NCBI GenBank assembly: GCA_910577095.1
Contig: CAJTLY010000002.1
Span: forward strand, 957 to 64,956
Direction of reading: 5' to 3'
Source: an uncultured Alphaproteobacteria bacterium
GTDB taxonomy: Bacteria > Pseudomonadota > Alphaproteobacteria > RF32 > CAG-239
Length of the DNA stretch: 64,000 nt
Below, one piece after another: positions 2,257 to 54,087 of this stretch. Position numbers and translations under genes: made by a program. A model generated the notes under the pieces. That model was not told the origin of the DNA. It ran no database searches and was given only the letters and a program-made list of their open reading frames with translations. Position 1 is the first letter of the stretch, and each line of letters begins with the position of its first letter.

Positions 2257-2285
2257 GCGGTCAGCCGAAACTAACCGCCAAATAA

Positions 2286-3116: not shown

Positions 3117-3168
3117 AAAAACGTTGTAATACAACGTTTTGAAAAATAGGAGGAAGCCTTGGGCTTCC
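3117..3168 (-). terminator. two tandem hairpins with T-runs downstream of the acidic-protein gene and upstream of the Rep-like gene
   Basis: GGAAGCC-ttg-GGCTTCC (3152-3168) and ACGTTGTA-at-ACAACGT (3121-3137). Each is followed by a T-run on the minus strand. Confidence 0.45.
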
Positions 3169-3177
3169 CCCAAAGTT

Positions 3178-4313: not shown

Positions 4314-5921
4314 ATGATAACAGCGGCTATCCTATGTCGAAGGGTTTCGACGGTTATGCAAGAGCGCGAAGGAACATCCCTTCTGAATCAGTTAGAAATA
4401 CTGACAGAATATTGTCAAAGAAAGGGGCTGACTATAATTAAAGATGCAGAAATAGTTGAAAGCAGCACCAAAGGGGAACGCAAAAAATTTATGGAAGTAA
4501 TAAAATTCTGCCAACAACAACGTGGTGGTGTTGCTTTGGTATGTTTGAAGACTGACAGACTGTTTCGCAACTTTAAGAATTACACAATGATTGATGAAAT
4601 GCGAAAAAGCGGGCAGCTTGAACTTCATCTAATCCAAGAAAATTTGATACTGAATAAAGATTCTAAAGCCGGAGACTTAACCATACTCGGTTTAAATGTC
4701 GTTATGGCTCAAAACTATGCACTTAGTCTACGAGATAATGTAGTCTATGGGATGGACTACTCAGTCAATCAAGGACGGTGTATGTCGAAAGCTCCGGCGG
4801 GCTATTTAAATATAAGGACATCAGACGGGAAAGCCGCCGTCATTATCGATGACGAACGGGCACCGATTATTCAGAAGCTTTTTGAACAATATGCAACGGG
4901 GCTTTATTCGGTTAAGGATATGATGAAAAAATGTAAAGAATGGGGGCTTATCAGCCGTTTTTCAGGAAAGCCGTTTGATACAAGTACGATTCACCGCATA
5001 CTAAACAACAGATTTTACATTGGGGAAATGTTATATAAAAACCAGTGGTACAAACATAATTACGAAACTTTAATCGCTCCCGCTCTGTTTAAAACGTGTC
5101 AGGACATTATGCACGGTCGTAAACCGGAAGAACCAAAACATTTCAAAACCACCGAAAAGCCCTTTATTTTTCGGGGATTAATAACTTGCGGAGAATGTGG
5201 TTGTATGATTAGTAGTGACCGTAAAATAAAACCCAGCGGCAAAGAATACGTTTACCTCAAATGTTCGCATTTCAAAGGGAACTGCAAAAATCCGCAGGTT
5301 AACGAAAATGTCGTTTTGAAACAAATCGAAGACGAATTGAAAAACTTGTCCGCACCGCAAGAGATAATGAGCTATCTCAGGTCAGATATGGAGAAAATTA
5401 TAAACCGACAGAATGAAATTCATAACCGAGAAGTAAAAGCCATTCGCAAGAAATACGATGACTGTCAGGAACAAATTAAATACTTGCGGTCACTACTGCT
5501 TAAAAAGGAAATTACACCGGAAGAATACCGTGATATGAATGAAGACCTCAAAAAAGAACAATACGAACTCGAGGGAAAGTCGGAACTGCTGACCGAAGCC
5601 GATGAAAAATTTTCAATCGCAGTCGCCACCATACTTTCCTTGGGTAATAATGCGTACCAAATCTTCCAGAGTTCGAAAGTAGAAACAAAAAGAGAGATTT
5701 TACACATCTTACTTTCGAACTTGAAATTGCAAGACCGCAAAATCTCTTATACCCTTAGAAAACCTTACGATTACATCAGGTCTTTAAACAAAAAAACACC
5801 CTCCAAATCGGAAGGTGTTGCAATTGGTGATCCCAACGAGGTTCGAACTCGTGTTACCGCCGTGAGAGGGCGATGTCCTAGACCACTAGACGATGGGACC
5901 GTGTTTTGTTTGTGCTTTTAA
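4314..5921 (+). CDS. large serine recombinase (integrase)
   Basis: Resolvase core (RRVSTVMQ..S..NQ), recombinase domain, zinc ribbon (CGECGCMISS...LKCSHFKGNC) and a coiled-coil tail. GGAG RBS before the ATG at 4314. The 3' end overlaps tRNA-Glu antisense. Confidence 0.9.
   Translation: MITAAILCRRVSTVMQEREGTSLLNQLEILTEYCQRKGLTIIKDAEIVESSTKGERKKFMEVIKFCQQQRGGVALVCLKTDRLFRNFKNYTMIDEMRKSGQLELHLIQENLILNKDSKAGDLTILGLNVVMAQNYALSLRDNVVYGMDYSVNQGRCMSKAPAGYLNIRTSDGKAAVIIDDERAPIIQKLFEQYATGLYSVKDMMKKCKEWGLISRFSGKPFDTSTIHRILNNRFYIGEMLYKNQWYKHNYETLIAPALFKTCQDIMHGRKPEEPKHFKTTEKPFIFRGLITCGECGCMISSDRKIKPSGKEYVYLKCSHFKGNCKNPQVNENVVLKQIEDELKNLSAPQEIMSYLRSDMEKIINRQNEIHNREVKAIRKKYDDCQEQIKYLRSLLLKKEITPEEYRDMNEDLKKEQYELEGKSELLTEADEKFSIAVATILSLGNNAYQIFQSSKVETKREILHILLSNLKLQDRKISYTLRKPYDYIRSLNKKTPSKSEGVAIGDPNEVRTRVTAVRGRCPRPLDDGTVFCLCF
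5790..5819 (-). terminator. intrinsic terminator of tRNA-Glu
   Basis: AACACCTTCC-gattt-GGAGGGTGTT hairpin followed by T7 on the minus strand, directly 3' of the tRNA. Confidence 0.6.
5825..5900 (-). tRNA. tRNA-Glu (anticodon CUC), CCA encoded
   Basis: GGTCCCATCGTCTAGTGGTCTAGGACATCGCCCTCTCACGGCGGTAACACGAGTTCGAACCTCGTTGGGATCACCA. The cloverleaf folds by hand, the anticodon loop is CTCTCAC, and it closely resembles E. coli tRNA-Glu. Confidence 0.9.
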
Positions 5922-6069
5922 CCCATATTTTCGTTTTTGGCAAGCTTTTTTATTAAATTTGCATCACTATCGGCAAAAGATTTTAATCAAAAACCTCTTT
6001 CTACAGCAACATGGCAACCCTTCAAACATTCGCCGCAGCCTTATCCGCCCTGCCGAGACAACGGCATGA

Positions 6070-9169: not shown

Positions 9170-12100
9170 ATGATTAAAATTTCTCGATACGCTTTATTAT
9201 TAACCCTTTCCTGTCTGACACCGGTCACAGCCGGCGCCGCTTCTCCTACAGAAGGGGAAACGTATGAAGGACTTTCGGGCAATACTGGTCCTGCCGGTAT
9301 GAGTGCTTACGGAAATCTTATCAGCAAAGACAACACATTCAAAAACAATACTGCAACCAGTGGTGAAATTGGATCATGGCCAGGTGGCGGCGGTGCATTA
9401 TATGCATTGGAAAGCAGTAATGTTACAATTGAGAACGGCACTTTTGAAAGCAATAAGAGTACCGGAACCGGCAATGCCGGCGGCGGCGCGGTTTTGCTTT
9501 ATAAGATCAACGCCGGTTCCGTTACCGATTCTCATTTTACATCTAATAACGCTGCGCAAAACGGCGGTGCCATTCTTATGGATTCGGTTAAGGAAGGCTT
9601 TACCGTTTCCGGCTCCGATTTTACGTCCAACGAAGCATTAAACGGCGGTGCCGTTTATGTTACCGGCAGTCTGCCCGTCTTCGACAACGTAACCTTCAAA
9701 CAAAACCACGCTTCCGAAAACGGCGGTGCCGTCAACGTATGGCCGACCAACGGCGGTCTCGGAAGATCGGTAAAGATAAATAACGGCACTTTTGAAGGAA
9801 ATACGGCCGGTTCTCGCGGCGGCGGCATTTATGCCTGGGGTACGATCAACGCCGAAAACACTTCTTTCAGCGGCAACAGCGCGGCCCAAGGCGGCGGTAT
9901 ATATCTTGCCGACGACAGCGCCAACACTCTGACCAACGTTACATTTAAAGAAAACACGGCAGAAACGCTGGGCGGCGGTCTGGCAATTTCCAACGGTGCG
10001 GTTCAGATCAACAACGGCACCTTTGACAACAATACGGCTCAAACCCGCGGCGGTGCCATCTCTGTTTTGACCAACGGCGGCAGCGCTTCTTCGATGCATA
10101 CCGTTTTTATCATCAACAGCGATTTTACCGACAACAAAGCCGAACAGGACGGCGGCGCCATTCATGTTAACGTTTCTCCCACCGCGCCGGGACTGAACAT
10201 GTTTCACATTACTTCCAACGACGGTACCACCCATAAGTTCAGCGGCAATCGTCATCGGACCAATACTTTCGGGCAAAAGGAAGAATCCAATGCCATTTTC
10301 ATTGAAAACGGCGAAGTGGCGTTAATAACCGCCAACGAAGGCAGCCGGCTGCTGTTCAACGACGGTATCGCCGGCAGCAACATCAGCAAAGCCAAGGTCT
10401 CGGCAAACGGCAACATTACTTTTAACGACAAGGTTAAAAACGTCGATTTGACCCTTGCCGGCGGCGAACTGATGCTGAATGATGTTGAAACCCGTCTTAC
10501 TTCAACCGACAATATTCTAGACAATGTCAAGCTTTCCTTAAACAAAGGAACGCTTAACATGCAAAACGGCGAACTGGATACTCTCAACATCACTGATTTC
10601 TCTGCCAAAGAAGACGTTTCGATCGCTTTTGACGCCGACTTGGCTACCGGCAAAAGCGATTACTTCAATGTTTCCGGCACCATGAGCGGCGGTTTGAAAT
10701 TTGACGCCGAACATTTCAATGTCAACTTCACCGACGGCGATGCCGCCGGTTTCCAGCTGTTTAACAAGCTGAGCAACGGTTTTTCCCTGGCCGGCGATGC
10801 GATCGTTCGTTTCACCGACGACGTCAAATACACCATGACCTTGGGTGAAAACGGATTTGTCAACGTCGAACGCGACACTTCCCGCGGCCTGTCCGACGCC
10901 GTAGCTGCCGAAGGTGTCCGGGAATTTCGTCCCGAAACGCCCAAAGACATTAAACTGTCCGCCGACCTCGGTCAGATGAACGGCGAATATCTGAAAGTTC
11001 AGCTCGACAATATGGGATTGGACGGTAACGGTCACAGCGGTTTGACTGTCGGTGCCGACCAACGGCTCGAACTGGTCGATATCGGCTCTGAAGAAGACGA
11101 CAAAGCCGTTACCGGTTTCAATTCGCTGAACGGCGGCGCCGTCCGCGGCGATGCCGGAAGTGAAATGACGATTGTCAATTCTTCGTTTGTCAATAACCAT
11201 GCCGAAGAAAACGGCGGCGCCGTCTGGTCGGACGGAATCGTCAATATTTCGGCAACCGACGGCAATTTTTCCCGTTTTGCCGGAAACACGGCCGGTGACA
11301 ACTCCAACGCCGTTTATATGGCAAACGCCGAGGGCAAGCTGAACATTAAAGCCGACGACGGAACCGTCACCTTCAACGATGCCGTCAACGGTGTCAAAGG
11401 CTATGAAATTAACATTGCCGGAACCGAAGCCGGAAAGGTTAATTTTAACAATGACGTCGAAAATGTCGGCAAAGTAAACATCAACGGCGCTCAGGTCCGT
11501 CTGAACACCGACAGCCGCATGAACGGCGCCGAGATCGCGCTTAACGGCGGCGCTTTGCATCTGGACAACGATATGATCAGCAACAAGGCTTCTTTCAAAA
11601 GCCTGAGCGGCGGCAACGGCGTTTTGCACATTGACGTTGACGAAGCCAACCGCAATGCGGATCAAATCGCAGTCGAAAATCTGCACGGAACCGTAAACGT
11701 TATCGGTCACAACATCTCGGTTGAACAAGCCCGGGCAATCCCGCAGGTCGGCACCAATGAAAAAACCGATACGGAAAATGCTTCCGACGATCAAATCAAG
11801 TTTGCAGAAGTTGCAACGTCCGGCGACGGCCGCTTCAACGTCTTGCGGGTTGAAAACAGCGCTTATGAATGGAACACCGTTTCTTCTGAAAATCAGGACG
11901 GTTCAACCGACTGGCTGATGGCAATCAAAAAAGATCCTCAAGGCCAAAAGACCGTGGTAGCGGAAGTTCCCGCCTATATGAGCCTGACCGGCGCCGGTTT
12001 TGAACAAACCCGTAACCTGGTCCGTCATATTGAAGATCAGACCGCGGCTGCCAAAACATACAGCCCGGTATGCAACGGATATTATGATTACGCCTATAAC

Positions 12101-12898
12101 GGCAAACCGCTTTACAATGTATGGGTATCCCCGACATACAACAGTGCTTCCGTAGACTCTCCGGCCAAATTCGACGCCGATGTTTACGGCGTGGAAGCCG
12201 GCGGCGACGTTCAACAGGATGCCAACAACCGTTTGGGCGTTTTTGCTTCGTATCGTCACGGCAAATATGACGTCGACGGCAAAAACAAATTCTTTGCGGC
12301 CGAAAAATCCAGCGACATCGACATTGACAGTTATCTGGCCGGTTTGTATTACCGCCATGACCGTCAAAACCTGTGGGCAATGGCAACCGTCTTCGGCGGC
12401 ATTCAAAAAGCCGACCTCAAAACGTCCGACGGCATCAAAGCCGATTCCGACGCGACCGAACTGGGTGCGGCATTACGCGGCGGTTACAGTTTCAAACTGT
12501 CCGACACCTTAGTACTGGAACCTCAGGTCGGTGCCGCCTATACGATGATCGACTGGGATGACATTAACGACGGTTATAAAAACGCCCGTTACGGTGCCGC
12601 TTCCTTATGGGAACTGGAAGCCGGAGTCAAACTTGAAAAAACAATGTCTCTGCGCGGCGAAACCGCCAAATGGTACATCAAACCGAGTATCATTAAAACT
12701 TTTGCCGACAATGACAAAGTTGACATCAGCGGTTTGAACTCAATCCGTACCATGGACGACAACACGTTGGGAAGAATTGCCGGCGGTGTGGTCTATCAGC
12801 TCAACAACCGGTTGAACGTTTACGGAAACGCCGGATATACTTTCGGTGACGATTACGAAAACGTTTCGGCTGATATCGGTCTGAGCTACGCTTTCTAA
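9170..12898 (+). CDS. autotransporter with a Pmp-repeat (FxxN / GGA[ILV]) passenger and a C-terminal beta-barrel
   Basis: Signal peptide. At least 10 units of the F-x-x-N ... GGA(I/V/L) type (FTSNNAAQNGGAILM, FKQNHASENGGAVNV, FDNNTAQTRGGAISV and others). C-terminal barrel ending in GLSYAF. Confidence 0.85.
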   Translation: MIKISRYALLLTLSCLTPVTAGAASPTEGETYEGLSGNTGPAGMSAYGNLISKDNTFKNNTATSGEIGSWPGGGGALYALESSNVTIENGTFESNKSTGTGNAGGGAVLLYKINAGSVTDSHFTSNNAAQNGGAILMDSVKEGFTVSGSDFTSNEALNGGAVYVTGSLPVFDNVTFKQNHASENGGAVNVWPTNGGLGRSVKINNGTFEGNTAGSRGGGIYAWGTINAENTSFSGNSAAQGGGIYLADDSANTLTNVTFKENTAETLGGGLAISNGAVQINNGTFDNNTAQTRGGAISVLTNGGSASSMHTVFIINSDFTDNKAEQDGGAIHVNVSPTAPGLNMFHITSNDGTTHKFSGNRHRTNTFGQKEESNAIFIENGEVALITANEGSRLLFNDGIAGSNISKAKVSANGNITFNDKVKNVDLTLAGGELMLNDVETRLTSTDNILDNVKLSLNKGTLNMQNGELDTLNITDFSAKEDVSIAFDADLATGKSDYFNVSGTMSGGLKFDAEHFNVNFTDGDAAGFQLFNKLSNGFSLAGDAIVRFTDDVKYTMTLGENGFVNVERDTSRGLSDAVAAEGVREFRPETPKDIKLSADLGQMNGEYLKVQLDNMGLDGNGHSGLTVGADQRLELVDIGSEEDDKAVTGFNSLNGGAVRGDAGSEMTIVNSSFVNNHAEENGGAVWSDGIVNISATDGNFSRFAGNTAGDNSNAVYMANAEGKLNIKADDGTVTFNDAVNGVKGYEINIAGTEAGKVNFNNDVENVGKVNINGAQVRLNTDSRMNGAEIALNGGALHLDNDMISNKASFKSLSGGNGVLHIDVDEANRNADQIAVENLHGTVNVIGHNISVEQARAIPQVGTNEKTDTENASDDQIKFAEVATSGDGRFNVLRVENSAYEWNTVSSENQDGSTDWLMAIKKDPQGQKTVVAEVPAYMSLTGAGFEQTRNLVRHIEDQTAAAKTYSPVCNGYYDYAYNGKPLYNVWVSPTYNSASVDSPAKFDADVYGVEAGGDVQQDANNRLGVFASYRHGKYDVDGKNKFFAAEKSSDIDIDSYLAGLYYRHDRQNLWAMATVFGGIQKADLKTSDGIKADSDATELGAALRGGYSFKLSDTLVLEPQVGAAYTMIDWDDINDGYKNARYGAASLWELEAGVKLEKTMSLRGETAKWYIKPSIIKTFADNDKVDISGLNSIRTMDDNTLGRIAGGVVYQLNNRLNVYGNAGYTFGDDYENVSADIGLSYAF

Positions 12899-24003: not shown

Positions 24004-26769
24004 TTAAAATTTATACTTGGCGTTAATCAAGCCTGTATGGTCTTGGTAATCCTGACGGAATTTGCCTTCATAACCAAGCGAGAGTTCGACACTATCATTG
24101 ACTTCCGCTGTTACACCGGCACCAAATTCCATACCGAAACGGTCAAGAGCTTCTCCATTTACGGTATAAGCAGAACCGTTTGCCAAAGTTACAACCGAAT
24201 TAACATCATCGTTCATCAGGTCATAAGTGGCGGCAATGCGTGCTTCCGGTTTGATATTCATACCGTTAGACAACTCCCAAGATTTGCTGACTTTCGCTCC
24301 GATGACACCGGTTAAAATATCGCTGTCATTGGCAGAAACACGCTGATCGGCAGAATCTTTGTAAGCATCTTGTTTGATGTGAACATAACGCAATCCGGCT
24401 TCCGGTGTAATACCCAAGCCGTTGATGTTCATATCATAACCGGTCATTGCCTGCAAACCAAAGGTTTCGACATCATAGTCAGCTTTGACACCAACTCCGG
24501 CAACACTCTTCTTTTCTTCATAGTCAGACCAGCCGTAGGTTGCGATACCGTTTACATACCAATTAGACGGTTTGTACTCACCATACAGGATGGCCGTATG
24601 TGTATCAACATCCGTATCACGCATGAAACCATCTATATCGGTGTGGGTATAAGCATAACCAATACCAACTTTGGTATCATCGGTTACAAACTTCTCAGCA
24701 CCGAAGGCAATACCGTTAGAATCTGCATCAAAGCCCTTCGCCTTGGATGTATCGTCCAGTTTGGATTTATTAAACAAGCCCTGAACCCACATCGCACCAC
24801 GTTTGAAAATATTGTCGCCGGAAGCCATACCTTCGCCACCGGTTGAGATTGAACCGCCGGTTAAACGGGTGCTGACTGCACCAAAGACCTGATTAGCTGT
24901 TTCAGTCTGGGTTTTCTGAACCATCGGAGCAACTTCCGGAGCAACGGCAGTCAAAGCGTCAACATAAGCTTTCTGCCCAGCAGCACTGGTGCTGTTGGAA
25001 AGCTGTGCCAGTTTTTCCGTAACGGCGGCAGCAACCGGGGAGCTGTTTGAAGCATTGACGCTGTCCCATGCCTCGGCTGTTCCGGCATTATTGGCAGAAC
25101 CACCGGCATCAACAACAGCATCCGTGGCAGAACCGACAGAAGTAACTTCAAAAGTTCCGTCGCCATTGTCCGTAAATTCATAACGGGAATTTTGGCTTAG
25201 ATTTGCAAATTTGCCTTCAACCTCTGCTTCGGCAGCATCGGCACCGTTAAATAATTTAAAAGTAGCTGTTTCGCCTTTAGCCAAAGCGGCACTGTTTAAG
25301 GTCATATTCAAATTTGTGCCGTTTTCGCTGATTTTGATATAATTGGCTTTGATTTTGCCATAGGTATCTTTATCGGTTACGGTAAAGGCTAAAGTTGAAT
25401 TATCGGCAAAAATGACACCTTCGCCATCGGCTTTATCACCGCTTGAATACAGTGTTTTGTCGCCAATATCCAGCGTTGCACCATTGCCGACCTGAACTGT
25501 CGTAATTGTATCAGTGGGCTCTTTGTCAAATGTCAGAGTTCCCTTGTTGATGGCTAAAATGTCTAAAGCTCCGATATCGCCGCTGATTGCATTATTTAAA
25601 GAGTGGCTGTTTTCAAAAATCAAGCTGACGTCTTCAACATTACCGTCAATTTTGGCGTTTGAGTTCTGAAAATGAATCTTGCCACGGTCATCACCGTTAA
25701 TATTGGCAACTAACTTGCCGCCCAAATTAATTCTGGTATTGTTATCATAAACATTAAGCGTGGCTTTCTGAGCCTGGCTCATATCTTCTGTAAACGCTTT
25801 GGCAAACAATGTAGAACCTGAAGCAATATTAAGCTCTGTCCCGTTAGCAATTTTTATATTGCCTACGGAAGATATTTCCGCAGAAGAGCCACTGACATTT
25901 ACCGTCCCGCCAGTAATATTTATGTTGCCGCTTGCCGGTTTGCCGTCCTCGCTTTGATAATCACCGCCTCTTATTATTGACGAATCTTTAAGAGAGATTG
26001 TGCCGCCGCTGATATTTATATCACCAGTTTCTCCGTCATGGAATATTGCGGAACCGTTTTCCAACATAAACTCTCCACCGCTAATATCCAAATCTCCAGA
26101 ATTTTCGCGTCCCAAAGAACTTTCATTCATTTTAAACGTACCGCCAGAAACAGTCATTGCAGCACCTTTCTGGGAATTGTCTCCGTCTGACATAGCCGGA
26201 TAGGTACTGATATTGGAATCATTCATTTCAAATGTTCCGCCCGAAATATTAAATTGGCTGCCGTCATCAGCATTGCCATATATAAAGATTTCGCCAGTAT
26301 CCAGCTTTATCGTGCCGCTGCTGATATCTGCTTCTTTAGCGTTCAGCGTTGAGCGCCATCCGGCTCCGTTCTCTTGTTTTAGCGTCAATTCTCCGCCCGT
26401 TTGGGTATATTTGCCGTCAACAAACATAAAAGGCTTTTCAGTCTCATCTGTCGCATCTGAATTGATTACCGACAAAGAGGCATTATCTGCCAGAGAGACA
26501 TTTCCGCTAACATTCAAGGTTTTGGAAACATCGACCTCATCGGCTTCTTCTTCCACGATTGCCTGAGTTTTTACATCTAATGAGGCTGTTCCTGATAAAT
26601 TTATGTCTCCCGAGTGTGAAAGCTGAGTATCCGAGCGCTCTACAACATAGCTTCCCGATGTTAGATTGGTTGCATCCGCCGGAAGATTTTCCGCATAAGC
26701 ATTATGGCCGCAAGTCAGCGCCACCAATGCCATTGTCATTAATAAAGTTTTTTTCATACGATTAAACAT
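24004..26769 (-). CDS. autotransporter outer-membrane protein (beta-helical passenger plus C-terminal barrel)
   Basis: Signal peptide. Repeated I(S/T)GGTF.(M/L)N.S units. Barrel ending in INAKYKF. Confidence 0.85.
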   Translation of the reverse strand: MFNRMKKTLLMTMALVALTCGHNAYAENLPADATNLTSGSYVVERSDTQLSHSGDINLSGTASLDVKTQAIVEEEADEVDVSKTLNVSGNVSLADNASLSVINSDATDETEKPFMFVDGKYTQTGGELTLKQENGAGWRSTLNAKEADISSGTIKLDTGEIFIYGNADDGSQFNISGGTFEMNDSNISTYPAMSDGDNSQKGAAMTVSGGTFKMNESSLGRENSGDLDISGGEFMLENGSAIFHDGETGDINISGGTISLKDSSIIRGGDYQSEDGKPASGNINITGGTVNVSGSSAEISSVGNIKIANGTELNIASGSTLFAKAFTEDMSQAQKATLNVYDNNTRINLGGKLVANINGDDRGKIHFQNSNAKIDGNVEDVSLIFENSHSLNNAISGDIGALDILAINKGTLTFDKEPTDTITTVQVGNGATLDIGDKTLYSSGDKADGEGVIFADNSTLAFTVTDKDTYGKIKANYIKISENGTNLNMTLNSAALAKGETATFKLFNGADAAEAEVEGKFANLSQNSRYEFTDNGDGTFEVTSVGSATDAVVDAGGSANNAGTAEAWDSVNASNSSPVAAAVTEKLAQLSNSTSAAGQKAYVDALTAVAPEVAPMVQKTQTETANQVFGAVSTRLTGGSISTGGEGMASGDNIFKRGAMWVQGLFNKSKLDDTSKAKGFDADSNGIAFGAEKFVTDDTKVGIGYAYTHTDIDGFMRDTDVDTHTAILYGEYKPSNWYVNGIATYGWSDYEEKKSVAGVGVKADYDVETFGLQAMTGYDMNINGLGITPEAGLRYVHIKQDAYKDSADQRVSANDSDILTGVIGAKVSKSWELSNGMNIKPEARIAATYDLMNDDVNSVVTLANGSAYTVNGEALDRFGMEFGAGVTAEVNDSVELSLGYEGKFRQDYQDHTGLINAKYKF

Positions 26770-28049: not shown

Positions 28050-30281
28050 TTACTTTGTTATTGTATCAAATATTTCCTTAAATTCTACATATTCATTATA
28101 TAATTTTTCAATATTTTCTTGTTTTTTAAGAAAATTAATTAATTTTTCAATATCGTGTTTTTTTGTATTCGTGTATGTTTCAATATCTCCCAATTTTAAA
28201 ATAAAAATATACCGTTTTCTCAATGCATTCATTTCACCAATAATCTTATCATAAACAGATGTTTTATTTTTCTTTAGAGATTCCATCACTTGGTTACATT
28301 TTACTTTAGAATACAGGATGAATTCTAAAGTCTTTACTAACTCATTAATATTACTTTTTAAATTTTCATTATTTTGTTCTAAGTCACTCTTTATCCGAGG
28401 TAATAAAGATATAACATTCTTTTTACCATTTACATCATCATATTTCAGGCTAACCTGTTTAGATAAAAATTGCTTTTCTTCAGCTAGCAATTGTTTATTA
28501 CTACTACTTAAAAACTCCTCTATATTATCTAGATCACCAATAAAATAGTTATCAATTTTAAACTTATTTAAGAAGTTGTGCCATATTTGGTAGTTCCTTT
28601 TTCCATTGATTTGCAGTATTTCTATATTACTTACATCAATATTATTTATTTTAGAATAAATGTTTAAATAGCTTCTAAAAACATATTCATCAGCAATTCC
28701 CTCAACAAGAATGACTTTATCGGCAAAGAAAATTCTGGATGAATTTGTTGTTTCTAATATTTTCATTAAATCTTTATCATTTAGTGTATTTGTATTGATC
28801 GATGTCGCTACCTTTGTAAAACATCCCTGATAAGTATAAAATCTATTTATGCTTTTAACATTTTCATTGGAAATAAAATAAGGTGAATGTGTCGCAATAA
28901 TTATTTGAGTTCCGTAAGATTTTTTAATATCTAATAATAATTCCACAAAAGCTTTTTGCATTTTAGGATGCATATGCAATTCGGGTTCATCAATAAGTAT
29001 TACTGCTCCCTCACTAATTGTATCACTACAAAACAATAAAATAAAATATATAAAAACCCTTTCTCCCGAACTCAAAGCATCAAAAGAAACTTCATTATTA
29101 TTTTTTACAAAAATAAAATATACTTCACTACCGTTTTCTCCTGACTTTGATAGCTTAAGCTTTAGATTTAGATAATTTTCCAAATATGGACTTATTTTCT
29201 TAAATATTTTATTTTTACTATAATCTGTATCTTTTACAAATTCAGCTTTTAACTTTCCCAAACACAGATCAAAAAGAGTAACAATATAAGATCCTGTAGA
29301 AATGTTTACCTTATAATCTTCATTAAAGGCCATAGAAATAGCAACATTATAATCATGAAAATCTTTTGATGATATTCCATAATTAGACTTTTCTGGAAAT
29401 GAAGTTTCATTTCCTCTTCGAATATCTAAAGATAAAAAATGAGGTTTATATGGAAAATTTTTAATATACTTACTTTTAGGAACTTTCCTGAATTTACTGG
29501 TCAAGCTATGATTATGAAAAAACACCAATGCATGAATTAACTGGTAGTTTTTTAAATATTTTATTACAGTTTCTGCGATAAATTTTCTACTTTTTTCTCT
29601 TTCTGAATTTTTTGGAAAATATTCGAATAAAACTTTCTTATTTATTAAAGAAAGAGGAATAAAAATATTCTGTGTTTTATTAAAATTTTCACATAAAATC
29701 TCAAGAGATCGGAAGAAATCCTTATTAATATCTTTAGAGTTCTCTTTTGAATAGTTTTGAGCTAAACATTTAATATCATCTTTATTTTTTAGAATATTTC
29801 GAATATATTTTCTATCTGTTGCATCCAAAGCTATAACTAGAAAAACAACACTATCAAAATTTTCATTTTCTACCGAGATTCTTTCATTTACTTTGAAAAC
29901 TGGGTTGATAATATTATTCATTGAATATTCAGCTTCTGAAAAATTTTTTTTGATTCTTTTATAATTTACATCAATTTTTTTTCCTAAATGCCCTTTTTTG
30001 TCTTCTAAAATTTTCTCATACCTTTCTAGCATTCTTTTTTGTCTGGTATAATTTGATAATGTATGTTCATAGTTTGTTGAAATTTCATAATGTTTTATAA
30101 GAATATACTTGAATATATAAGTTATTACTTTTAACAGATTTGTTTTTCCAGTCCCATTGGCCCCGACATTAATGCTAATTTCATTGTTTCCATATAAGTT
30201 AATATATGAATCTTTTAATTTCTTCTCTTCTATATAAGGAAATGAATATGCATTAGAGATTGCTATACATTTTAATTTCAT
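28050..30281 (-). CDS. OLD-family nuclease (ABC/AAA_15-type ATPase fused to Toprim)
   Basis: Walker A GANGTGKTN. Signature and Walker B LSSGERVFIYF...VILIDEPELHMHP, and H-loop ATHSP. C-terminal Toprim FFADKVILVEGIADE ... FIGDLDN. Confidence 0.8.
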   Translation of the reverse strand: MKLKCIAISNAYSFPYIEEKKLKDSYINLYGNNEISINVGANGTGKTNLLKVITYIFKYILIKHYEISTNYEHTLSNYTRQKRMLERYEKILEDKKGHLGKKIDVNYKRIKKNFSEAEYSMNNIINPVFKVNERISVENENFDSVVFLVIALDATDRKYIRNILKNKDDIKCLAQNYSKENSKDINKDFFRSLEILCENFNKTQNIFIPLSLINKKVLFEYFPKNSEREKSRKFIAETVIKYLKNYQLIHALVFFHNHSLTSKFRKVPKSKYIKNFPYKPHFLSLDIRRGNETSFPEKSNYGISSKDFHDYNVAISMAFNEDYKVNISTGSYIVTLFDLCLGKLKAEFVKDTDYSKNKIFKKISPYLENYLNLKLKLSKSGENGSEVYFIFVKNNNEVSFDALSSGERVFIYFILLFCSDTISEGAVILIDEPELHMHPKMQKAFVELLLDIKKSYGTQIIIATHSPYFISNENVKSINRFYTYQGCFTKVATSINTNTLNDKDLMKILETTNSSRIFFADKVILVEGIADEYVFRSYLNIYSKINNIDVSNIEILQINGKRNYQIWHNFLNKFKIDNYFIGDLDNIEEFLSSSNKQLLAEEKQFLSKQVSLKYDDVNGKKNVISLLPRIKSDLEQNNENLKSNINELVKTLEFILYSKVKCNQVMESLKKNKTSVYDKIIGEMNALRKRYIFILKLGDIETYTNTKKHDIEKLINFLKKQENIEKLYNEYVEFKEIFDTITK

Positions 30282-48242: not shown

Positions 48243-49259
48243 ATGGAAACAACCGCAGAAAAAATCAAACGTTTAGGCAAAAAAAGCTGGGACTGGCTCT
48301 CAAAAACCGCCAGACACGGTCCTATTAAGCTGGCGTTTCTGATGTCGACAGTGATCGGCAACGGCGGTTCTTCGACCGCGGCAACCATGACCGGAACCAA
48401 CAATAATACAAACGTCCCTCAAAACCCGATTGAACTTTCAGAAACTCCGGGACAAAACAAAGTAAACACGGTCGATTGTGATGCCGCAACCGAAAAACTT
48501 GAAGAACTGATGGCAGAAAACCTGGTTGTGCAGAATCAAAACCTGATCGGAAATTTCGATCTTGAAGGCCGTACCTTTACCGCCGAAGAACTGCAAATGA
48601 TTCAGCAAAGCGATCTGAGCGAAGAAATTCAGTCGATTGCCAAGAAAAAAGCTAAACCCGGTGCGCCGAAAAAAGGACAGCAGACTTATTGTTTGGGCGC
48701 AGTCAAAAATGTTTATGCCGCAAAAGGCATTATGATTGACGCCCAGCGTTTTGCCTATCATGCCGTTGACGGATTTAAGAAAAATGAACATTTTGTCGAA
48801 ATTGACACCAACATGGAAAATTTCCATTCGCTGCCCGACGCCACCGTCATCGCCTGGGAAAAAGGCACAACCCGCTACGGCCACGTGGCGATGAAAATCG
48901 GCAACAAAGAATACTGCGACTTTGTCTACAATCTGCGCACTCACAACCGCCGCGGCAGCAGCGGGCAGCGTTACGGCAAAGCGCATACCTACATTCTCAA
49001 AGATATGCCAGTTGAAAAACAGTTAGCCCAAAAACTGATTGCCGAAGGCCGGTTGAAAGAGCCTGTCAGAAAACAGATGTTGGCAATGGCTAAAATCAAC
49101 AATATGAAAATGCTTTTAAATACTGCAGATCTGGCACAAATGAGCCAGAACTTTCGCCAAGACGACATTTCGGAGATCAAGCTCCAACCTCAACCGCTGG
49201 CAATGGGAAAAAAGCAGCAGAAAACGATGGCCAGAATGCTGCAAAGAGAAAGAGACTGA
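48243..49259 (+). CDS. hypothetical protein with a CHAP/papain-like Cys...His pattern
   Basis: QTYCLGAVKNV, then about 60 residues later RYGHVAMKIGN. GAGGTGAG RBS. No clear signal peptide. Confidence 0.45.
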   Translation: METTAEKIKRLGKKSWDWLSKTARHGPIKLAFLMSTVIGNGGSSTAATMTGTNNNTNVPQNPIELSETPGQNKVNTVDCDAATEKLEELMAENLVVQNQNLIGNFDLEGRTFTAEELQMIQQSDLSEEIQSIAKKKAKPGAPKKGQQTYCLGAVKNVYAAKGIMIDAQRFAYHAVDGFKKNEHFVEIDTNMENFHSLPDATVIAWEKGTTRYGHVAMKIGNKEYCDFVYNLRTHNRRGSSGQRYGKAHTYILKDMPVEKQLAQKLIAEGRLKEPVRKQMLAMAKINNMKMLLNTADLAQMSQNFRQDDISEIKLQPQPLAMGKKQQKTMARMLQRERD

Positions 49260-50965: not shown

Positions 50966-51103
50966 TTTCAATCTCCGTTTTATACAACCCCGTTTTCACT
51001 ATAACAAAAAATAAGCACAGCGCAATTTTTTTTTAAAATTCACTGGATTTTAGACAACCTTGTGTTATAATAGACAGAAAATGGACTGATAAAGGTAAAA
51101 GCT

Positions 51104-52477
51104 ATGGGTAAATTTTCGTTTGACAGAGACTATTCAAAACGCGTTTCCATGCACCGCGACAACGAGCAGCATAAAAAACGGGGCGAAAATCTCAGTGCCC
51201 GCAAAAATCAGATTTTCCAAAAGGAAAAACAAGATACACTCAAGGCCGAAGCGGAAAAACTTACAACGCCGGAGATAAAAACTTCCGCTGCCGCGGTTCC
51301 CGGTCTCAGCGACGAAGAGATTATCCAACAGCTCAACATGCTGACCGAAGCTTTTCGCGCCACCAACGGTCGGGAAGAAGAAAAAGCCCTGCGCGAATTT
51401 GCCGCTCAATATCATCTCAATCTGCGTGTCGAAGCGGCAGTTTCCAAAACCGACAAGAGCGCAATCGCCCGCATGGTTTTTAACGGCGGCGTTGAAAAAC
51501 CTTTCGGCGGTTATTCGGAAAAATTTGCCGATCTGGCCAACTACCCGTATAAGTATTCAATTCATCCCGGCAAAGCGGAAGATTATAAACTGGAAGACTC
51601 GCCGATTTGGCAGATGATGTCAGAAGAACCGCGGCTGGCAGAGATGAAGGGCAAAATGCTCGAAGCGCTGGCCAAAGCCGGAGTACGCCCGGAGATGCTG
51701 CCGGAAATGAATCTGAACGACTTCAAATATCTGATGTTTAACCATTGTGCCGTTCAAAAAGGCATGGGCTTTGCCAAACTGTTTCAGGCCAAGGACGAAA
51801 ACGGCAACCCTCTGACCTATCGTGATATCCGCGCTGCCAAGGACGTTCCGGTCGCAACCAGCGCCAAACAGGAAAACGTCAAACGTTTTATTAAAGAGAA
51901 TCCGCAATTCAAAGATATGCTCCTGAAGGTCCCCGGCGCCAAGAAAGAATATGTCGAAGCTCTGGTCAAAAAGATGGAAACCAGCGGCCTGACCGATATG
52001 TCCAAAGAACTGGAACGGCATCCCGACTGGGCAAACCAACCGGCCATTGACGTCCATCATATCATCAACATCAAAGACTGCCGCCTGTTTGAAGCACAAG
52101 GAAAATCGTATGCCGCCGTCAACGATTATGAAAACATGTGTATTGTCAGCAACGGCACCCTGCTCGACGCATTAGAACGTTCCAACGGCAACAGCGGTGA
52201 AAAAGCCCACTCAATTCACGGCAGCATTCACGCCGCCGACATGGTATTCAAAGACAGAGCCGAAGACGGCAGCACCAAGCGCACCATGGTTCGCCTTGAA
52301 CCGCAGCCGGGTGTTCGCTGTATGCTTGGTTTCAGTCCCGACATGATGATCATCGACCAACAAAACCAACAACAAAATGACAATCGCGGATTGAGTGCCG
52401 AGGCAGAAAAAGCCGCCGCCAATTCGCAGGCCGTCATGCGCAACATCCAACAAAACAGCGGAGCAATGTCAGCATGA
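51104..52477 (+). CDS. putative toxin: unknown N-terminal region plus a C-terminal His-His (AHH-like HNH/EndoVII-fold) nuclease motif
   Basis: IDVHHIINIKD ... NDYEN ... SN ... AHSIHGSIH has the order and spacing of a beta-beta-alpha-Me finger. It is followed by an overlapping SUKH gene. Confidence 0.5.
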   Translation: MGKFSFDRDYSKRVSMHRDNEQHKKRGENLSARKNQIFQKEKQDTLKAEAEKLTTPEIKTSAAAVPGLSDEEIIQQLNMLTEAFRATNGREEEKALREFAAQYHLNLRVEAAVSKTDKSAIARMVFNGGVEKPFGGYSEKFADLANYPYKYSIHPGKAEDYKLEDSPIWQMMSEEPRLAEMKGKMLEALAKAGVRPEMLPEMNLNDFKYLMFNHCAVQKGMGFAKLFQAKDENGNPLTYRDIRAAKDVPVATSAKQENVKRFIKENPQFKDMLLKVPGAKKEYVEALVKKMETSGLTDMSKELERHPDWANQPAIDVHHIINIKDCRLFEAQGKSYAAVNDYENMCIVSNGTLLDALERSNGNSGEKAHSIHGSIHAADMVFKDRAEDGSTKRTMVRLEPQPGVRCMLGFSPDMMIIDQQNQQQNDNRGLSAEAEKAAANSQAVMRNIQQNSGAMSA

Positions 52478-52887
52478 ACATCCAGGAACTGATCGATTTT
52501 TTGCAACAAAACGATGAAGTGGGCCGCAACAAGCCCTCTACCGAAGTTAAAATCGCGATGGGCACACTCAAGCTCAAACAAGAAGGCTTTGCTCAGCCGC
52601 TGCCAGACTTTTACAAGCTGCTGCGCAAGTTCAACGGCCTTTCCAACAACGGTTGTTTTATCTTGGGAATTAATACCGAAAGCACCATGTTTCCCGAGCT
52701 GCTGGACTATAACCTCCGTCACCGACCGGATCTGCCGGAAGCGGTGATTCTGGGTTATAACGACGCTTTTCAGTTGGTTTACAGCGCCAACGACGAAAAA
52801 TATCACATTGTTGATAAAGACGACGGCAGCGAAGAAGGCAGTTCGGACAATCTGGCCGATGTTATTCCGTATATTTTGCATATATAA
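52474..52887 (+). CDS. SMI1/KNR4 (SUKH-1) family immunity-type protein
   Basis: PLPDFYKLLRKFNGLSNNGCFILG is the characteristic SMI1_KNR4 motif. 137 aa. ATGA overlap with the upstream gene. Confidence 0.7.
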   Translation: MNIQELIDFLQQNDEVGRNKPSTEVKIAMGTLKLKQEGFAQPLPDFYKLLRKFNGLSNNGCFILGINTESTMFPELLDYNLRHRPDLPEAVILGYNDAFQLVYSANDEKYHIVDKDDGSEEGSSDNLADVIPYILHI

Positions 52888-52912: not shown

Positions 52913-53098
52913 ATGATGGAATATATAAAAAGAAAACTGACCAAAACGAAAGATGATCAGGCTTGGAAAGACCAAATCGGCTATCCGCGCTATTATCAGG
53001 AAAACGGGCTTTTTATCAAAGAAACCGAAGACGGCGAAAAATTTGTCGTCACTTTGGATGAACAACACCAAGAGATTATCGTAGGAAAAGCAAAATGA
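52913..53098 (+). CDS. small protein, presumed antitoxin partner of the zeta-like kinase
   Basis: 61 aa, with an ATGA overlap with the downstream P-loop gene. No family recognised. Confidence 0.5.
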   Translation: MMEYIKRKLTKTKDDQAWKDQIGYPRYYQENGLFIKETEDGEKFVVTLDEQHQEIIVGKAK

Positions 53099-53967
53099 CA
53101 AGAAAGCGTCCCTGGATGGTAATTATCGCCGGTCCCAACGGCGCCGGAAAATCTACCTTTTACGATAAGGTTATCAAAGACGATCCGTTAATGAAAAATG
53201 CGCCGTTTATCAATTTGGACAACATTGCCAAAGATTTGTCCGCTCCGGATCAAGATCCGAACGACAACATGCTCAGCGCCGGCAAAATCACTTATGAAGA
53301 AGTGGAAAAGCACATTGAAAACCGCAGCAGTTTTGTGTACGAGACCACATCTTCGGGCAAAGTACATCTGCGTTTTATGGACGAAGCCCGCAAACAAGGT
53401 TTTAAAATCGCCACCGTGTTTATCGGCCTTTCGGATCCGCTGCTGTCTTATTATCGCGTCAAATCACGCGTGATCAACGGCGGTCACGACGTTCCGTATG
53501 AAGATATTATTCGCCGTTATCCCAAAATTATGAAGAACTTTCCGGAAATGCTGAAACGCAGCGACATTGCCGCCGTATTTGACAACTCTTCCCACGAACC
53601 ATACAAATTGATCTTTTTGATGGATGATAAAGCCTTTCGTATTTTTTATCAATACCCTTCCTGGCTGAAAGAATCCATCAGGGAACGCAAAACGCGCAAA
53701 GATATGGTTTTTGCCGCCGATGCTGTAGACGTCCATCGTTTAAACGATACTGAGTTACGTTTGATATCCGATCTGGCGTTTACTCCGTCTCTTGAAGAGC
53801 ATGCTTTTGACAATTATGTGAAAAAAATAATAGGTCCGTTACCGCTTGCCGAGAAAACAGCTTCATCTTTCCCCGGAGAAGGGGATATCTCGCCGGTTAC
53901 CAAGGAACAAATCAGGGAACAGGTCTCTAAATTATTTAACCAAGGAAAAAAGAGAGATCGGTTTTAA
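53095..53967 (+). CDS. zeta-toxin/COG4185-type P-loop kinase with a C-terminal extension
   Basis: VIIAGPNGAGKST Walker A and VINGGHDVPYEDIIRRY, typical of the COG4185/zeta family. Confidence 0.7.
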   Translation: MTRKRPWMVIIAGPNGAGKSTFYDKVIKDDPLMKNAPFINLDNIAKDLSAPDQDPNDNMLSAGKITYEEVEKHIENRSSFVYETTSSGKVHLRFMDEARKQGFKIATVFIGLSDPLLSYYRVKSRVINGGHDVPYEDIIRRYPKIMKNFPEMLKRSDIAAVFDNSSHEPYKLIFLMDDKAFRIFYQYPSWLKESIRERKTRKDMVFAADAVDVHRLNDTELRLISDLAFTPSLEEHAFDNYVKKIIGPLPLAEKTASSFPGEGDISPVTKEQIREQVSKLFNQGKKRDRF

Positions 53968-54060
53968 TCCGGTAAGACAAGAGTTTACCAAAAAGCTTCT
54001 CCGTTTCAGCCGGTTTTTCCGGATGTTCCCCGCGTTAAACGCGTTTTTCGGGTGACACGT

Positions 54061-54087
54061 AAAAAGGCGCCGCAGCGCCTTTTTTTA
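54061..54087. terminator. bidirectional intrinsic terminator
   Basis: AAAAAGGCGC-cgca-GCGCCTTTTTTT lies between convergent genes. Confidence 0.65.

Follow-up and report, generated by a model that had tools for sequence, protein, structure and literature searches.

A vertically inherited gene pair for a predicted HNH nuclease and a SUKH-fold partner in gut Alphaproteobacteria

When a gene for a putative nuclease is overlapped by a gene of the immunity type, and the nuclease is joined to an N-terminal region of no recognized kind, is the pair a polymorphic toxin system with an undescribed route of delivery, or has the cassette been put to some other use? This question is raised by two adjacent genes in a 64,000-nucleotide stretch of DNA from an uncultured alphaproteobacterium (the window, by which we mean the whole of this stretch). 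The first-pass annotation had treated them as an orphan polymorphic-toxin-like pair, in which a protein ending in a His-His nuclease motif is followed by an overlapping SUKH immunity gene.

Both open reading frames were recovered at the coordinates first given for them. The putative nuclease gene (457 amino acids), present in the ORF list, occupies 51104..52477, and the gene for its SUKH-fold, YrhA-family partner (137 amino acids), a predicted cognate inhibitor or immunity protein, occupies 52474..52887, both on the plus strand. These are genuine genes rather than chance ORFs, as the nuclease has 77 full-length homologues at 30-98% identity, and its family comprises 174 representative clusters. 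The ATGA overlap between the stop codon of the first gene and the start codon of the second was likewise borne out, the sequence there reading GCA ATG TCA GCATGAAC. Upstream of the nuclease gene we read a Shine-Dalgarno-like AAGG (51092..51095, plus strand), 8 nt 5' of the ATG, and a candidate extended -10 element, TGTTATAAT (TGnTATAAT; 51063..51071, plus strand), approximately 33 nt 5' of the start codon, which a consensus promoter scan left unreported because it has no good -35. The Shine-Dalgarno sequence of the SUKH gene, GGAG (52460..52463, plus strand), lies within the 3' end of the nuclease gene, pointing to translational coupling. Orthologous loci have equivalent purine-rich sites before the SUKH gene, and the gap between the two genes falls between -26 and +19 nt in 36 of 36 loci. 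A scan of the plus strand found no terminator-like site between 51104 and 53967. The strongest intrinsic-terminator-like hairpin, a 10-bp stem followed by a T-run (54061..54084, plus strand), stands 3' of four genes, and a second, weaker site of 5 pairs is at 54031-54043.

In the final ~125 residues before the C-terminal tail, the HNH/His-Me catalytic motif is complete and conserved superfamily-wide, and we assigned an HNH/His-Me-type nuclease domain to residues 301-425 (52004..52378, plus strand) on the basis of this motif, the order of secondary-structure elements, and profile matches. All three strings on which the original call was made are present, namely IDVHHIINIKD (with HH at residues 318-319), NDYEN (340-344), and AHSIHGSIH (368-376); their spacings had been miscounted, as IKD and NDYEN are separated by 14 residues rather than 20, and NDYEN and SN by 4 rather than 5. 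The family alignment shows no variation at H318, H319, D325, H372, or H376 and very little at N344, and the pattern HH...D...N...H-x3-H is conserved over the superfamily of 174 representative clusters. H318 and H319, invariant in alignments A1, A3, A5, and A6, fall at the C-terminal end of a predicted strand (313-319); in the AlphaFold2 (AF2) model N340 and N344 precede a second strand (345-352), and H372 and H376 are on a helix (371-377), with an extra helix (353-360) that in this clade separates the strand from the catalytic helix. The modeled order, beta(HH)-beta-alpha(H-x3-H), is compatible with a His-Me finger.

Profile searches gave weak but consistent matches that bear out the AHH/HNH-type toxin pattern proposed at first. 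Pfam AHH (PF14412) scored 15.4 bits against the full protein and 18.1 bits (E = 0.0027) against the domain alone, in both cases under its gathering cutoff of 22.3. Among 29 family members, AHH matched 6, HNH_2 matched 3, and HNH matched 1, all below the gathering score, and these were the only Pfam families to recur. A whole-chain Foldseek search of the 457-residue model against the PDB and BFVD returned nothing at E < 0.2, HNH folds included. Since no HNH fold was retrieved by structure, the nuclease call rests on the motif, secondary-structure, and profile evidence described above.

What lies in front of this domain had been described as a novel N-terminal region of ~330 residues. It is indeed novel, and it is better divided in two: a basic, poorly conserved tail of residues 1-69 (51104..51310, plus strand; pI 9.75), predicted to be disordered (pLDDT below 50 at residues 1-24 and 41-66), and a folded, mostly helical domain of ~230 amino acids at residues 70-300 (51311..52003, plus strand; pLDDT mostly above 90), which we call the N-domain. 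The tail falls to 8-20% identity in distant orthologues, while the N-domain is conserved and carries the motifs ARMxFNGxVE.P, Y.L..S..W, and SAK..N..RFI.EN..F. A second poorly conserved tail, rich in Gln and Asn, closes the protein (residues 426-457; 52379..52474, plus strand; pLDDT 35-48), with 0-20% identity to distant orthologues. Over the full chain, the AF2 model has a pLDDT of 80 and a pTM of 0.74, and the junction of the N-domain with the HNH domain contains no low-confidence linker (pLDDT 94-98 over residues 281-320).

The N-terminal region was first reported to hold no recognizable module, and this stands: it matched nothing in Pfam, NCBIfam, PHROGs, PADLOC, or the PDB. Residues 1-300 had no Pfam or NCBIfam match in the window protein, nor did the same region in 10 far relatives; the modeled N-domain found no Foldseek match in the PDB or BFVD; and searches of PDB sequences with the full protein and the family profiles gave chance-level matches only. 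The N terminus is strongly hydrophilic, and the maximum 19-residue Kyte-Doolittle mean of 0.53, a crude test, agrees with the earlier statement that a signal peptide is lacking; by the same crude test, no transmembrane segment was seen in the 457-residue protein. In line with the earlier statement on T5, T6, and T7 secretion genes, no T6SS, T7SS, CDI, or Rhs genes were seen beside the pair. No secretion signal, trafficking domain, or neighboring secretion gene turned up, so that an antibacterial role is at most a possibility. Two autotransporters are encoded elsewhere in the 64-kb window; they are self-contained and unrelated to the pair. We also considered a T4SS linkage, as one distant locus (L042) has VirB11- and TrbI-like genes ~5 kb downstream of the pair, and set it aside as a coincidence because unrelated genes, including a restriction enzyme, intervene and the association does not recur in other loci.

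The downstream protein has the SUKH fold and belongs to the YrhA family, as judged from its AF2 model (pLDDT 95.6, pTM 0.90), Foldseek, and the NCBIfam model NF038335. Foldseek retrieved YobK (2prv) as the best match (E = 1.6e-4, probability 1.0, TM 0.65), followed by 2icg, 3d5p (SMI1/KNR4), 6qbo (Knr4), 2pag, and 3ffv (Syd), and the comparison indicates that the protein is a pure SUKH domain. NF038335 (YPO0640_fam) aligned over model positions 12-146 of 150 with 44.2 bits (E = 1.7e-11), below its curated cutoff of 55 bits, which makes the protein a clear homologue under the naming threshold. The same model matched 30 of 30 partner orthologues at E <= 1e-3 (best, 5e-15), and one relative (P0091) is named a YrhA family protein by NCBI. 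Assignment to the SUKH-1 subfamily, which the first-pass annotation made from the hallmark string LPDFYKLLRKFNG, was upheld in part. The string is present and the fold is SUKH, but the subfamily is not established: the SUKH models of Pfam (SMI1_KNR4/SUKH-1, SUKH_5, and SUKH_6) did not match the window protein, and among the 30 orthologues 12 matched SMI1_KNR4, 11 matched SUKH_6, and 8 matched SUKH_5, about equally weakly, with best E values of only 4e-4 to 1e-3.

Both genes have counterparts in Escherichia coli. In K-12, yhhZ runs to locus position 7042 and yrhA begins at 7039, giving the same 4-bp overlap as in the window, and YrhA falls in the same NCBIfam family, NF038335, as the window partner. 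YhhZ shares with the window protein an HNH motif of the type VHHK/I..[LIV].D ... N.[FY]EN[LM] ... (P)YH, to which the profile of our C-terminal domain aligned at YhhZ residues 313-356 (19.7 bits, E = 3e-8 as a single comparison); the partner profile matched YrhA with 16.3 bits (E = 3.5e-7), and BLASTP gave values of 0.009 and 2e-4 against YhhZ and YrhA, respectively. Judged by these alignments, both genes are homologous to the yhhZ/yrhA cassette. The two loci also differ. YhhZ joins its HNH domain to T6SS_HCP, Hcp being a means of T6SS delivery, whereas the window protein has the novel ~230-residue domain and neither Hcp nor another known delivery domain. At the aligned positions YhhZ has a single helix histidine in place of H372 and H376, and the E. 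coli cassette is strain variable and disrupted by an insertion sequence in K-12, while the window pair is syntenic and conserved across species. Hcp-ET1, an Hcp-fused HNH DNase of E. coli whose type YhhZ represents, has been reported to act as an antibacterial effector that is delivered by the T6SS and has its own immunity protein (PMC6730261).

How has the pair been inherited? The SUKH gene lies directly 3' of the nuclease gene in 36 of 36 species found, so the immediate adjacency of an immunity-type gene, noted at first for the window, holds throughout. The pair is distributed over one group of host-associated bacteria, the gut and rumen Alphaproteobacteria, which are known almost only from metagenome-assembled genomes, and the surrounding synteny is conserved across the genomes of gut Alphaproteobacteria, with neighbors that include housekeeping genes (rpoA with ribosomal genes, LpxK, Sua5, and ATP synthase/ClpB). 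Values of dN/dS were 0.03-0.045 for the nuclease gene and 0.05-0.10 for the SUKH gene, at a dS equal to that of the neighbors, and purifying selection on the pair is as strong as on FtsK or a sigma factor. The flanks of two records, L035 (labeled 'Lactobacillaceae') and L015 (labeled 'Bacteroidaceae'), did not confirm their labels; that of L015 is probably a binning error because this record shares the alphaproteobacterial synteny.

The label "polymorphic" was thus not borne out, the pair being single copy, syntenic, vertically inherited, and under strong purifying selection. A survey of homologues for C-terminal domain swapping, as suggested at the outset, was negative: of 144 representative clusters, 122 had both the N-domain and the HNH domain and most of the others were fragments or divergent, as were the 18 that matched the N-domain only, and this HMM survey found no alternative C-terminal domain on the N-domain. 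Across orthologues the identities of the two domains drop in parallel. Six apparent C-terminal variants (P0032, P0033, P0036, P0037, P0050, and P0051) were rejected as frameshifted, deleted, or chimeric assemblies. Orphan cassettes, extra immunity genes, and immunity arrays were absent from the window and from ~50 loci, each of which has one copy of either gene. No relatives were found in IMG/VR or PLSDB, on which ground we rejected a phage or plasmid location, and PADLOC and PHROGs scans matched neither gene, on which ground we rejected a known defense system or a phage origin. One mark of polymorphic toxin systems (Zhang et al. 2012, PMC3482391) is a conserved N-terminal module for trafficking or secretion; a signal peptide, RHS, PAAR, LXG, FHA/CDI, Hcp/VgrG, or MafB was not found here. 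The pair also departs from a type II toxin-antitoxin system in that the toxin has 457 residues and an extra domain, the partner is purely SUKH, PADLOC gave no match, and the locus is syntenic.

Outside this conserved core the association loosens. In a small sample of far relatives, the SUKH gene adjoined the nuclease gene in 4 of the 8 that were informative, and the flanks examined around P0168, P0194, P0240, and P0216 contained no SUKH gene. The catalytic motif is complete in P0168 and P0194, and P0240 keeps HH and H-x3-H without the Asp. These SUKH-less relatives suggest that the nuclease may in some cases do without an inhibitor gene beside it. Conversely, a far clade typified by P0188 has seemingly lost the helix histidines and retains the SUKH partner, a hint that the partnership may go beyond neutralization. 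Some far relatives have Arg/Lys-rich C-terminal tails, and the Lys-rich ones look to us like nucleic-acid-binding segments.

We propose that the locus is a lineage-specific, vertically inherited nuclease-inhibitor pair, an explanation that, taken as a whole, we consider probable. The 457-residue protein would be a metal-dependent HNH/His-Me finger DNase. If its residues work as their counterparts do in classical HNH enzymes, H318 would bind the metal, H319 would act as the general base, N344 would stabilize the hairpin, and H372 and H376 would be the metal ligands of the helix. This catalytic domain would be built onto the conserved helical domain with no flexible linker between them. The SUKH protein, made from the same mRNA through translational coupling, would bind the nuclease and keep it inactive in the producing cell, and the nuclease might act either after export, as an antibacterial effector, or inside the cell. 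Nuclease domain and immunity gene would go back to one ancestral cassette shared with E. coli YhhZ (Hcp-HNH)/YrhA, which is fixed here to a different N-terminal domain and turned into a stable chromosomal pair of gut Alphaproteobacteria rather than a recombining polymorphic toxin. Toxin-immunity pairs do not usually keep their synteny across an order-level lineage, and that this pair does so counts against the explanation.

Three other readings draw on the same evidence. A classical polymorphic toxin, with the N-domain as the delivery module for an undescribed route, the HNH domain as an exchangeable warhead against related bacteria, and the SUKH protein as immunity, would match the domain types and the order of toxin and overlapping immunity gene. 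Disorder at both termini and the Arg/Lys-rich ends of some far relatives would also fit, and the fact that members of both families, toxin and immunity, are found in E. coli with Hcp as the carrier implies that the cassette has changed its N-terminal context at least once in deep time. Nevertheless, we find this reading distinctly unlikely for the window pair, whose N-domain is never joined to another C-terminal domain (122 clusters have both), whose two domains diverge in parallel across a confidently modeled junction (pLDDT 94-98) with no low-confidence linker, and whose loci (the window and ~50 others) show neither orphan cassettes nor additional immunity genes. Single-copy syntenic genes with the dS of their neighbors and a dN/dS of 0.03-0.10, missing from plasmid and viral collections and from the vicinity of secretion genes, also speak against it. 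If the nuclease instead acted within the cell, the pair could form a toxin-antitoxin or abortive-infection module, in which loss or displacement of the SUKH antitoxin (for example, upon phage attack or stress) would free the DNase and cause growth arrest or death. We regard this as unlikely: neither PADLOC nor PHROGs matched, the toxin is large and has a conserved extra domain, the SUKH protein lacks the DNA-binding domain of typical type II antitoxins, and the pair is stable and syntenic over many species and absent from plasmids and phages, rather than patchy and mobile. On the other side stand the lack of a signal peptide or secretion domain, the compact and translationally coupled two-gene operon, and, in the closest relatives, an adjoining and probably cotranscribed pair that resembles a zeta-toxin-type toxin-antitoxin system.

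Vertical inheritance among housekeeping neighbors, under purifying selection that matches FtsK or a sigma factor, raises a further alternative, a domesticated housekeeping enzyme for DNA processing (repair, recombination, or chromosome/nucleoid processing) with the SUKH protein as a regulatory or targeting subunit. An N-domain that is fixed to the nuclease and structurally integrated with it would suit such an enzyme, as would far relatives that keep the catalytic residues without SUKH or have nucleic-acid-binding-like Lys-rich tails, and the clade that retains SUKH though its helix histidines seem lost. However, the cassette to which both halves show homology has a relative in E. coli that has been reported as an antibacterial effector with its immunity protein, no similarity to known repair or recombination proteins was found, and a distribution limited to one host-associated group argues against a general housekeeping function; we consider this alternative quite unlikely.

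Several known systems resemble the proposed nuclease-inhibitor pair. Its basic logic is not new, given that SUKH-guarded HNH toxins are well known, and SUKH proteins adjoining HNH-fold toxins have been described as immunity proteins (PMC3113570). The AHH, LHH, and WHH toxins of that type have, as here, an HH in the first strand, two helix histidines, and a SUKH gene directly downstream (Zhang, Iyer & Aravind 2011, PMC3113570), and AHH gave the best Pfam match of the window protein's nuclease domain. Close members of the window family differ from AHH toxins in having a VHH, IHH, or MHH tripeptide, and the window protein has two insertions in the beta-beta-alpha core. Nor does the window pair share their RHS, CDI, LXG, or other N-terminal modules, their polymorphism, or their immunity arrays. 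Bacillus subtilis YobL-YobK has the same toxin-then-immunity order, and YobK is the best structural match of the 137-residue protein; YobL is an RNase toxin of the T7SS/LXG kind from Firmicutes, whereas the window toxin is of the HNH type, has no LXG domain, and belongs to a Gram-negative lineage. The logic proposed here, coexpression from adjacent genes of a potentially lethal nuclease and a dedicated, tight-binding inhibitor, is also that of barnase-barstar, NucA-NuiA, and the colicin DNase-Im pairs, some of which are stably chromosomal. The inhibitor and the accessory domain of the nuclease have folds unrelated to theirs, and those nucleases have recognizable export signals or release mechanisms, which we did not see in the window protein.

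What sets the locus apart is that a cassette homologous to T6SS-linked yhhZ/yrhA has been firmly fused to an undescribed domain, the fold of which is predicted with confidence, and that it has been kept as a single-copy, syntenic, strongly constrained unit throughout poorly studied gut and rumen Alphaproteobacteria. N-domain and HNH domain together make a new, currently unannotated protein family, whose clusters at 50% identity number at least 174, and this is true whether the protein is exported or intracellular. A bolder reading, which we think less likely than not, is that the N-domain is a new functional module, one that either serves an undescribed delivery of an HNH DNase out of gut alphaproteobacterial cells or from one to another, or marks a former toxin/immunity cassette domesticated as a core nuclease-regulator complex that has a role in the cell. 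Export of the nuclease, and with it an undescribed delivery route, is a possibility only; were the protein an exported weapon, it would point to a delivery mechanism outside current effector-prediction rules. Were it intracellular, it would clearly exemplify how a conflict system can be domesticated, and a cassette shared with E. coli Hcp-ET1 would have been captured and fixed as a vertical pair across a whole host-associated lineage.

Two further genes follow the nuclease and SUKH genes and lie outside their module. Searches of the PDB with the 290-residue product of the second and with a 338-residue neighbor of the pair returned no matches. The first, a 61-amino-acid ORF (52913..53098, plus strand), is probably cotranscribed with the pair, as it begins 25 nt past the SUKH stop codon, and it overlaps the next gene by ATGA. 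That next gene encodes a Zeta-toxin-family P-loop kinase (53095..53967, plus strand; Pfam Zeta_toxin, E = 6.6e-10, above the gathering score), of which the 61-residue protein is a candidate antitoxin. The small ORF is confined to relatives with a nuclease that has 63% identity or more to that of the window, and the zeta-like kinase gene is distributed likewise.

The two open reading frames of the pair lie on the + strand at exactly the positions named in the first-pass annotation, 51104-52477 (the large protein, 457 aa) and 52474-52887 (the small protein, 137 aa), and the sequence bears out their overlap, an ATGA common to the stop of the large gene and the start of the small one. That a nuclease-motif gene is paired here with a SUKH gene is confirmed, and the interpretation placed on the pair was partly right; the peptide strings quoted for it are all present, but two of the spacings given were wrong by a few residues. 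In our reading, the large gene specifies a nuclease of HNH type and the small one its cognate SUKH/YrhA-family partner, which most likely inhibits it; the locus is related to the yhhZ/yrhA cassette of Escherichia coli. A TGnTATAAT element (51063-51071) and an AAGG (51092-51095) can be read ahead of the large gene, as can a GGAG 10 nt upstream of the small-gene start. Scanning the + strand from the gene pair onward, we found no terminator-like hairpin until a weaker one at 54031-54043, with a much stronger one at 54061-54084, both past a 61-aa ORF and a zeta-toxin-family kinase gene, so these two genes and the pair may form a single transcript.

The AlphaFold2 model of the large protein, built on an alignment of 48 sequences, has a pLDDT of 80 and a pTM of 0.74. 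Residues 1-24, 41-66, and 426-457 are disordered in it, and the core (approximately residues 70-425) is mostly above pLDDT 90, with no confidence dip between its N-terminal and C-terminal parts. As the first-pass annotation had it, no signal-peptide-like N terminus was seen in the protein, nor was a transmembrane segment. Searched exhaustively with an HMM, 1.84 billion representatives yielded 174 clusters containing relatives at E ≤ 1e-3, the far ones among them 350 to 1050 aa long. These relatives have in common the motifs ARMxFNGxVE.P, Y.L..S..W, and SAK..N..RFI.EN..F in the N-domain (aa 70-300), which is a new, unannotated family, and [ST]VHHxxx[IVL]xD ... N-x3-N ... (P)YH-x3-H-x2-D in the C-terminal domain (aa 301-425). 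When 29 diverse C-terminal domains were aligned, five residues (H318, H319, D325, H372, and H376) showed no variation and N344 almost none. The predicted elements follow the order strand 313-319 (with HH at its end), strand 345-352, and helix 371-377 (with H372 and H376), and two clade-specific insertions fall between them. The same pattern of a first-strand HH pair and two helix histidines is found in the AHH, LHH, and WHH derivatives of the HNH fold, in which the pair's first His coordinates the metal and its second one activates water (Zhang et al., PMC3113570). AHH (6 domains), HNH_2 (3), and HNH (1) were the only Pfam families to recur among the 29, always below the gathering score. Given this motif, element order, and set of recurring matches, we consider it very probable that the C-terminal domain is a His-Me finger nuclease forming its own clade. 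The AHH/HNH-type assignment made earlier is supported on these grounds but not by fold comparison, as Foldseek of the model against PDB and BFVD gave no match better than E 0.2; profile searches of the family against PDB sequences also gave no match.

The small protein had been assigned to SUKH-1, of which the fold stands and the subfamily is not borne out. Its AlphaFold2 model (alignment of 52 sequences, pLDDT 95.6) best matched Bacillus subtilis YobK in the PDB (2prv; E 1.6e-4, probability 1.0, TM 0.65), with further matches to 2icg, the SMI1/KNR4 protein 3d5p, yeast Knr4, 2pag, and Syd; the predicted structure, taken with these matches, confirms a SUKH fold. A Pfam search of the window protein gave no match, and its 30 tested orthologues matched SMI1_KNR4 (12/30), SUKH_6 (11/30), and SUKH_5 (8/30) only weakly. 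The NCBIfam model NF038335 ("YrhA family") matched all 30 orthologues and the window protein itself at E 1.7e-11 (44 bits, below the cut-off of 55), and one relative is named "YrhA family protein" by NCBI.

In E. coli K-12, yrhA, the namesake of this family, directly follows yhhZ, annotated as a "putative endonuclease," with the same 4-bp overlap as in the window. YhhZ, in which an Hcp domain and a weak match to HNH were found, is listed under His-Me finger group 32 (Jablonska et al., PMC5714182). Our C-terminal-domain profile aligned to YhhZ residues 313-356, NVHHKLSLDDGG-NDFENLVLIENEPYH (19.7 bits, E 3e-8 as a single comparison), and the small-protein profile aligned to a reconstructed YrhA (16.3 bits, E 3.5e-7), in agreement with pairwise BLASTP (E 0.009 and 2e-4, respectively). 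Judged from these alignments, both halves of the window pair are homologous to both halves of the yhhZ/yrhA cassette, which is joined to a T6SS carrier in E. coli. Because the architecture is shared, YhhZ may be the K-12 counterpart of Hcp-ET1, an Hcp-fused HNH DNase. At the K-12 locus (L051; NC_000913.3 3581863-3584309), yhhZ is intact and the overlapping yrhA is split by IS1E, a case of a toxin gene persisting beside a disrupted immunity gene.

The large protein has 77 homologues, none of them named, at 30 to 98% identity over the full length in a 90%-clustered protein collection. When GTDB species were scanned with one genome each, 36 of them proved to contain relatives, and nearly all of these genomes are MAGs from gut or rumen that carry the label "uncultured Azospirillum sp." or "Alphaproteobacteria bacterium"; such gut "Azospirillum" labels, we presume, usually correspond to the GTDB order RF32. 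A small-gene homologue lies directly downstream in 36/36 loci (gap, -26 to +19 nt). Flanking gene order (DUF308 upstream; a PH-like membrane protein, a sigma factor, and FtsK downstream) is kept down to ~36 to 44% identity of the large protein, and other housekeeping genes, e.g., rpoA with S13/S11, S6/S18/L9, or LpxK, surround the pair in species farther removed. Relative to the two closest genomes, dN/dS was 0.03 to 0.045 for the large gene and 0.05 to 0.10 for the small gene, compared to 0.10 to 0.11 for FtsK and 0.07 to 0.09 for the sigma factor, and the dS of the pair was the same as that of its neighbours. By this conservation and these substitution rates, both ORFs are real genes under constraint. 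Two loci came from MAGs with other labels, L035 (Lactobacillaceae) and L015 (Bacteroidaceae). L015 is syntenic with the alphaproteobacterial loci and probably owes its label to a binning error; L035, on an 829-kb contig with 40% G+C in the stretch examined, might indicate horizontal transfer.

The pair had been described as polymorphic-toxin-like, and a survey of homologues for C-terminal domain swapping had been proposed; neither the survey nor the loci favoured that description. The N-domain and this HNH domain occur together in 122/144 representative clusters, and the 18/144 clusters with an N-domain match alone are fragments or divergent copies in which the HH motif is still present. Identities of the two domains fall in parallel (76/75%, 46/42%, and 33/42%), each gene is present in one copy per locus, and neither orphan toxin tips nor immunity arrays were found in the window or ~50 loci, on which grounds we rejected a recombining polymorphic toxin. 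Odd or short homologues were likewise rejected as domain variants, being frameshift, deletion, or chimeric assemblies. Relatives of the pair were absent from IMG/VR viral contigs and PLSDB plasmids, and this absence, together with single copies, synteny, and purifying selection, means that the pair behaves as a stable chromosomal gene pair. In the model, there is no structural break between the N-domain and the nuclease domain, and this is at least as compatible with an accessory or substrate-handling role for the N-domain as with a role in delivery. A reading in which the N-domain would serve as a new module for delivery, or the pair would be a conflict system that has been domesticated into a core complex of this gut alphaproteobacterial lineage, strikes us as less likely than not.

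A housekeeping enzyme with the small protein as its regulatory subunit is a less likely alternative, kept alive by far relatives without a partner gene. Flanking DNA was sufficient for a judgement in eight far relatives: a small-protein homologue lies directly downstream in four (L045, L047, L048, and L049; hmmsearch E 5e-26 to 2e-17) and was not found there in the other four (P0168, P0240, P0194, and P0216). The catalytic motif is complete in P0168 and P0194, and P0240 keeps HH and H-x3-H with Cys at the position of Asp. P0168 and P0222 both lie between Peptidase_M17 on the upstream side and Sua5 on the downstream side, and only the SUKH gene, present at P0222 and absent at P0168, sets them apart. 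A missing partner is not decisive, since K-12 too has an intact toxin gene beside a broken immunity gene. Hard to reconcile with a pure immunity role is the P0188-like clade (L048 4001-6227), which has an HH[DE]xAIxD motif, seems to have lost both helix histidines, and keeps the overlapping partner gene (E 1.6e-25).

Four relatives of ~1000 aa (P0222, at L045 5001-8099, P0238, P0257, and P0264) carry a ~550-aa insertion separating the N-domain from the HNH domain. Numerous helical repeats of ~45 aa, arranged in tandem, appear to make up this insertion; their signature, F[IV]xxNxxxFxxY[LF], occurs once in the window protein, as RFIKENPQFKDML (aa 261-273). At L050 (2535-5296), a 485-aa gene with an N-domain match only (E 3e-13) and no HNH domain lies directly upstream of, and overlaps, a full N-domain and HNH gene; it is a tandem paralogue or a split gene. 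The distant orthologous locus L042 (15038-19281) has VirB11-like (T2SSE) and TrbI/VirB10-like T4SS genes ~5 kb downstream of the pair, with a restriction endonuclease gene in between, and these are probably part of an adjacent conjugative element.

Several neighbouring features of the window were also recorded. The 61-aa ORF begins 25 nt after the SUKH gene and overlaps by ATGA the 290-aa zeta-toxin-family P-loop kinase gene (together 52913-53967; Pfam Zeta_toxin E 6.6e-10), and the two look like an epsilon/zeta-type TA pair. Only relatives with a nuclease of 63% identity or more have them, which dates their insertion later than the nuclease/SUKH pair, and the kinase gene's dS of 1.17 against L001, a related locus, compared to ~0.3 for its neighbours, suggests allele replacement. 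A 338-aa protein (48243-49259), syntenic with the pair in many relatives and the fastest-evolving of the neighbourhood (dN/dS 0.16 to 0.26), had no match in Pfam, NCBIfam, PADLOC, PHROG, or PDB; its ...YCLGAV... / ...GHVAM... Cys/His pair recalls, in our own reading, NlpC/P60- or CHAP-type hydrolases. Two large autotransporters (T5aSS; 9170-12898, 1242 aa with Chlamydia-PMP-type repeats, and 24004-26769, 921 aa) are self-contained and have no link to the nuclease gene. A 743-aa OLD-family nuclease (28050-30281; AAA_15/AAA_21 plus OLD-like TOPRIM; PADLOC Old E 1e-31, also GajA/AriA-like) sits in an islet where G+C drops sharply to 25%, against ~41 to 43% around it and a window mean of 46%, and is probably a horizontally acquired defence gene. 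Positions 1-6000, at 34 to 37% G+C and with a large serine recombinase at 4287-5921 (Resolvase, Recombinase, and Zn_ribbon_recom), are probably the edge of an integrated mobile element.
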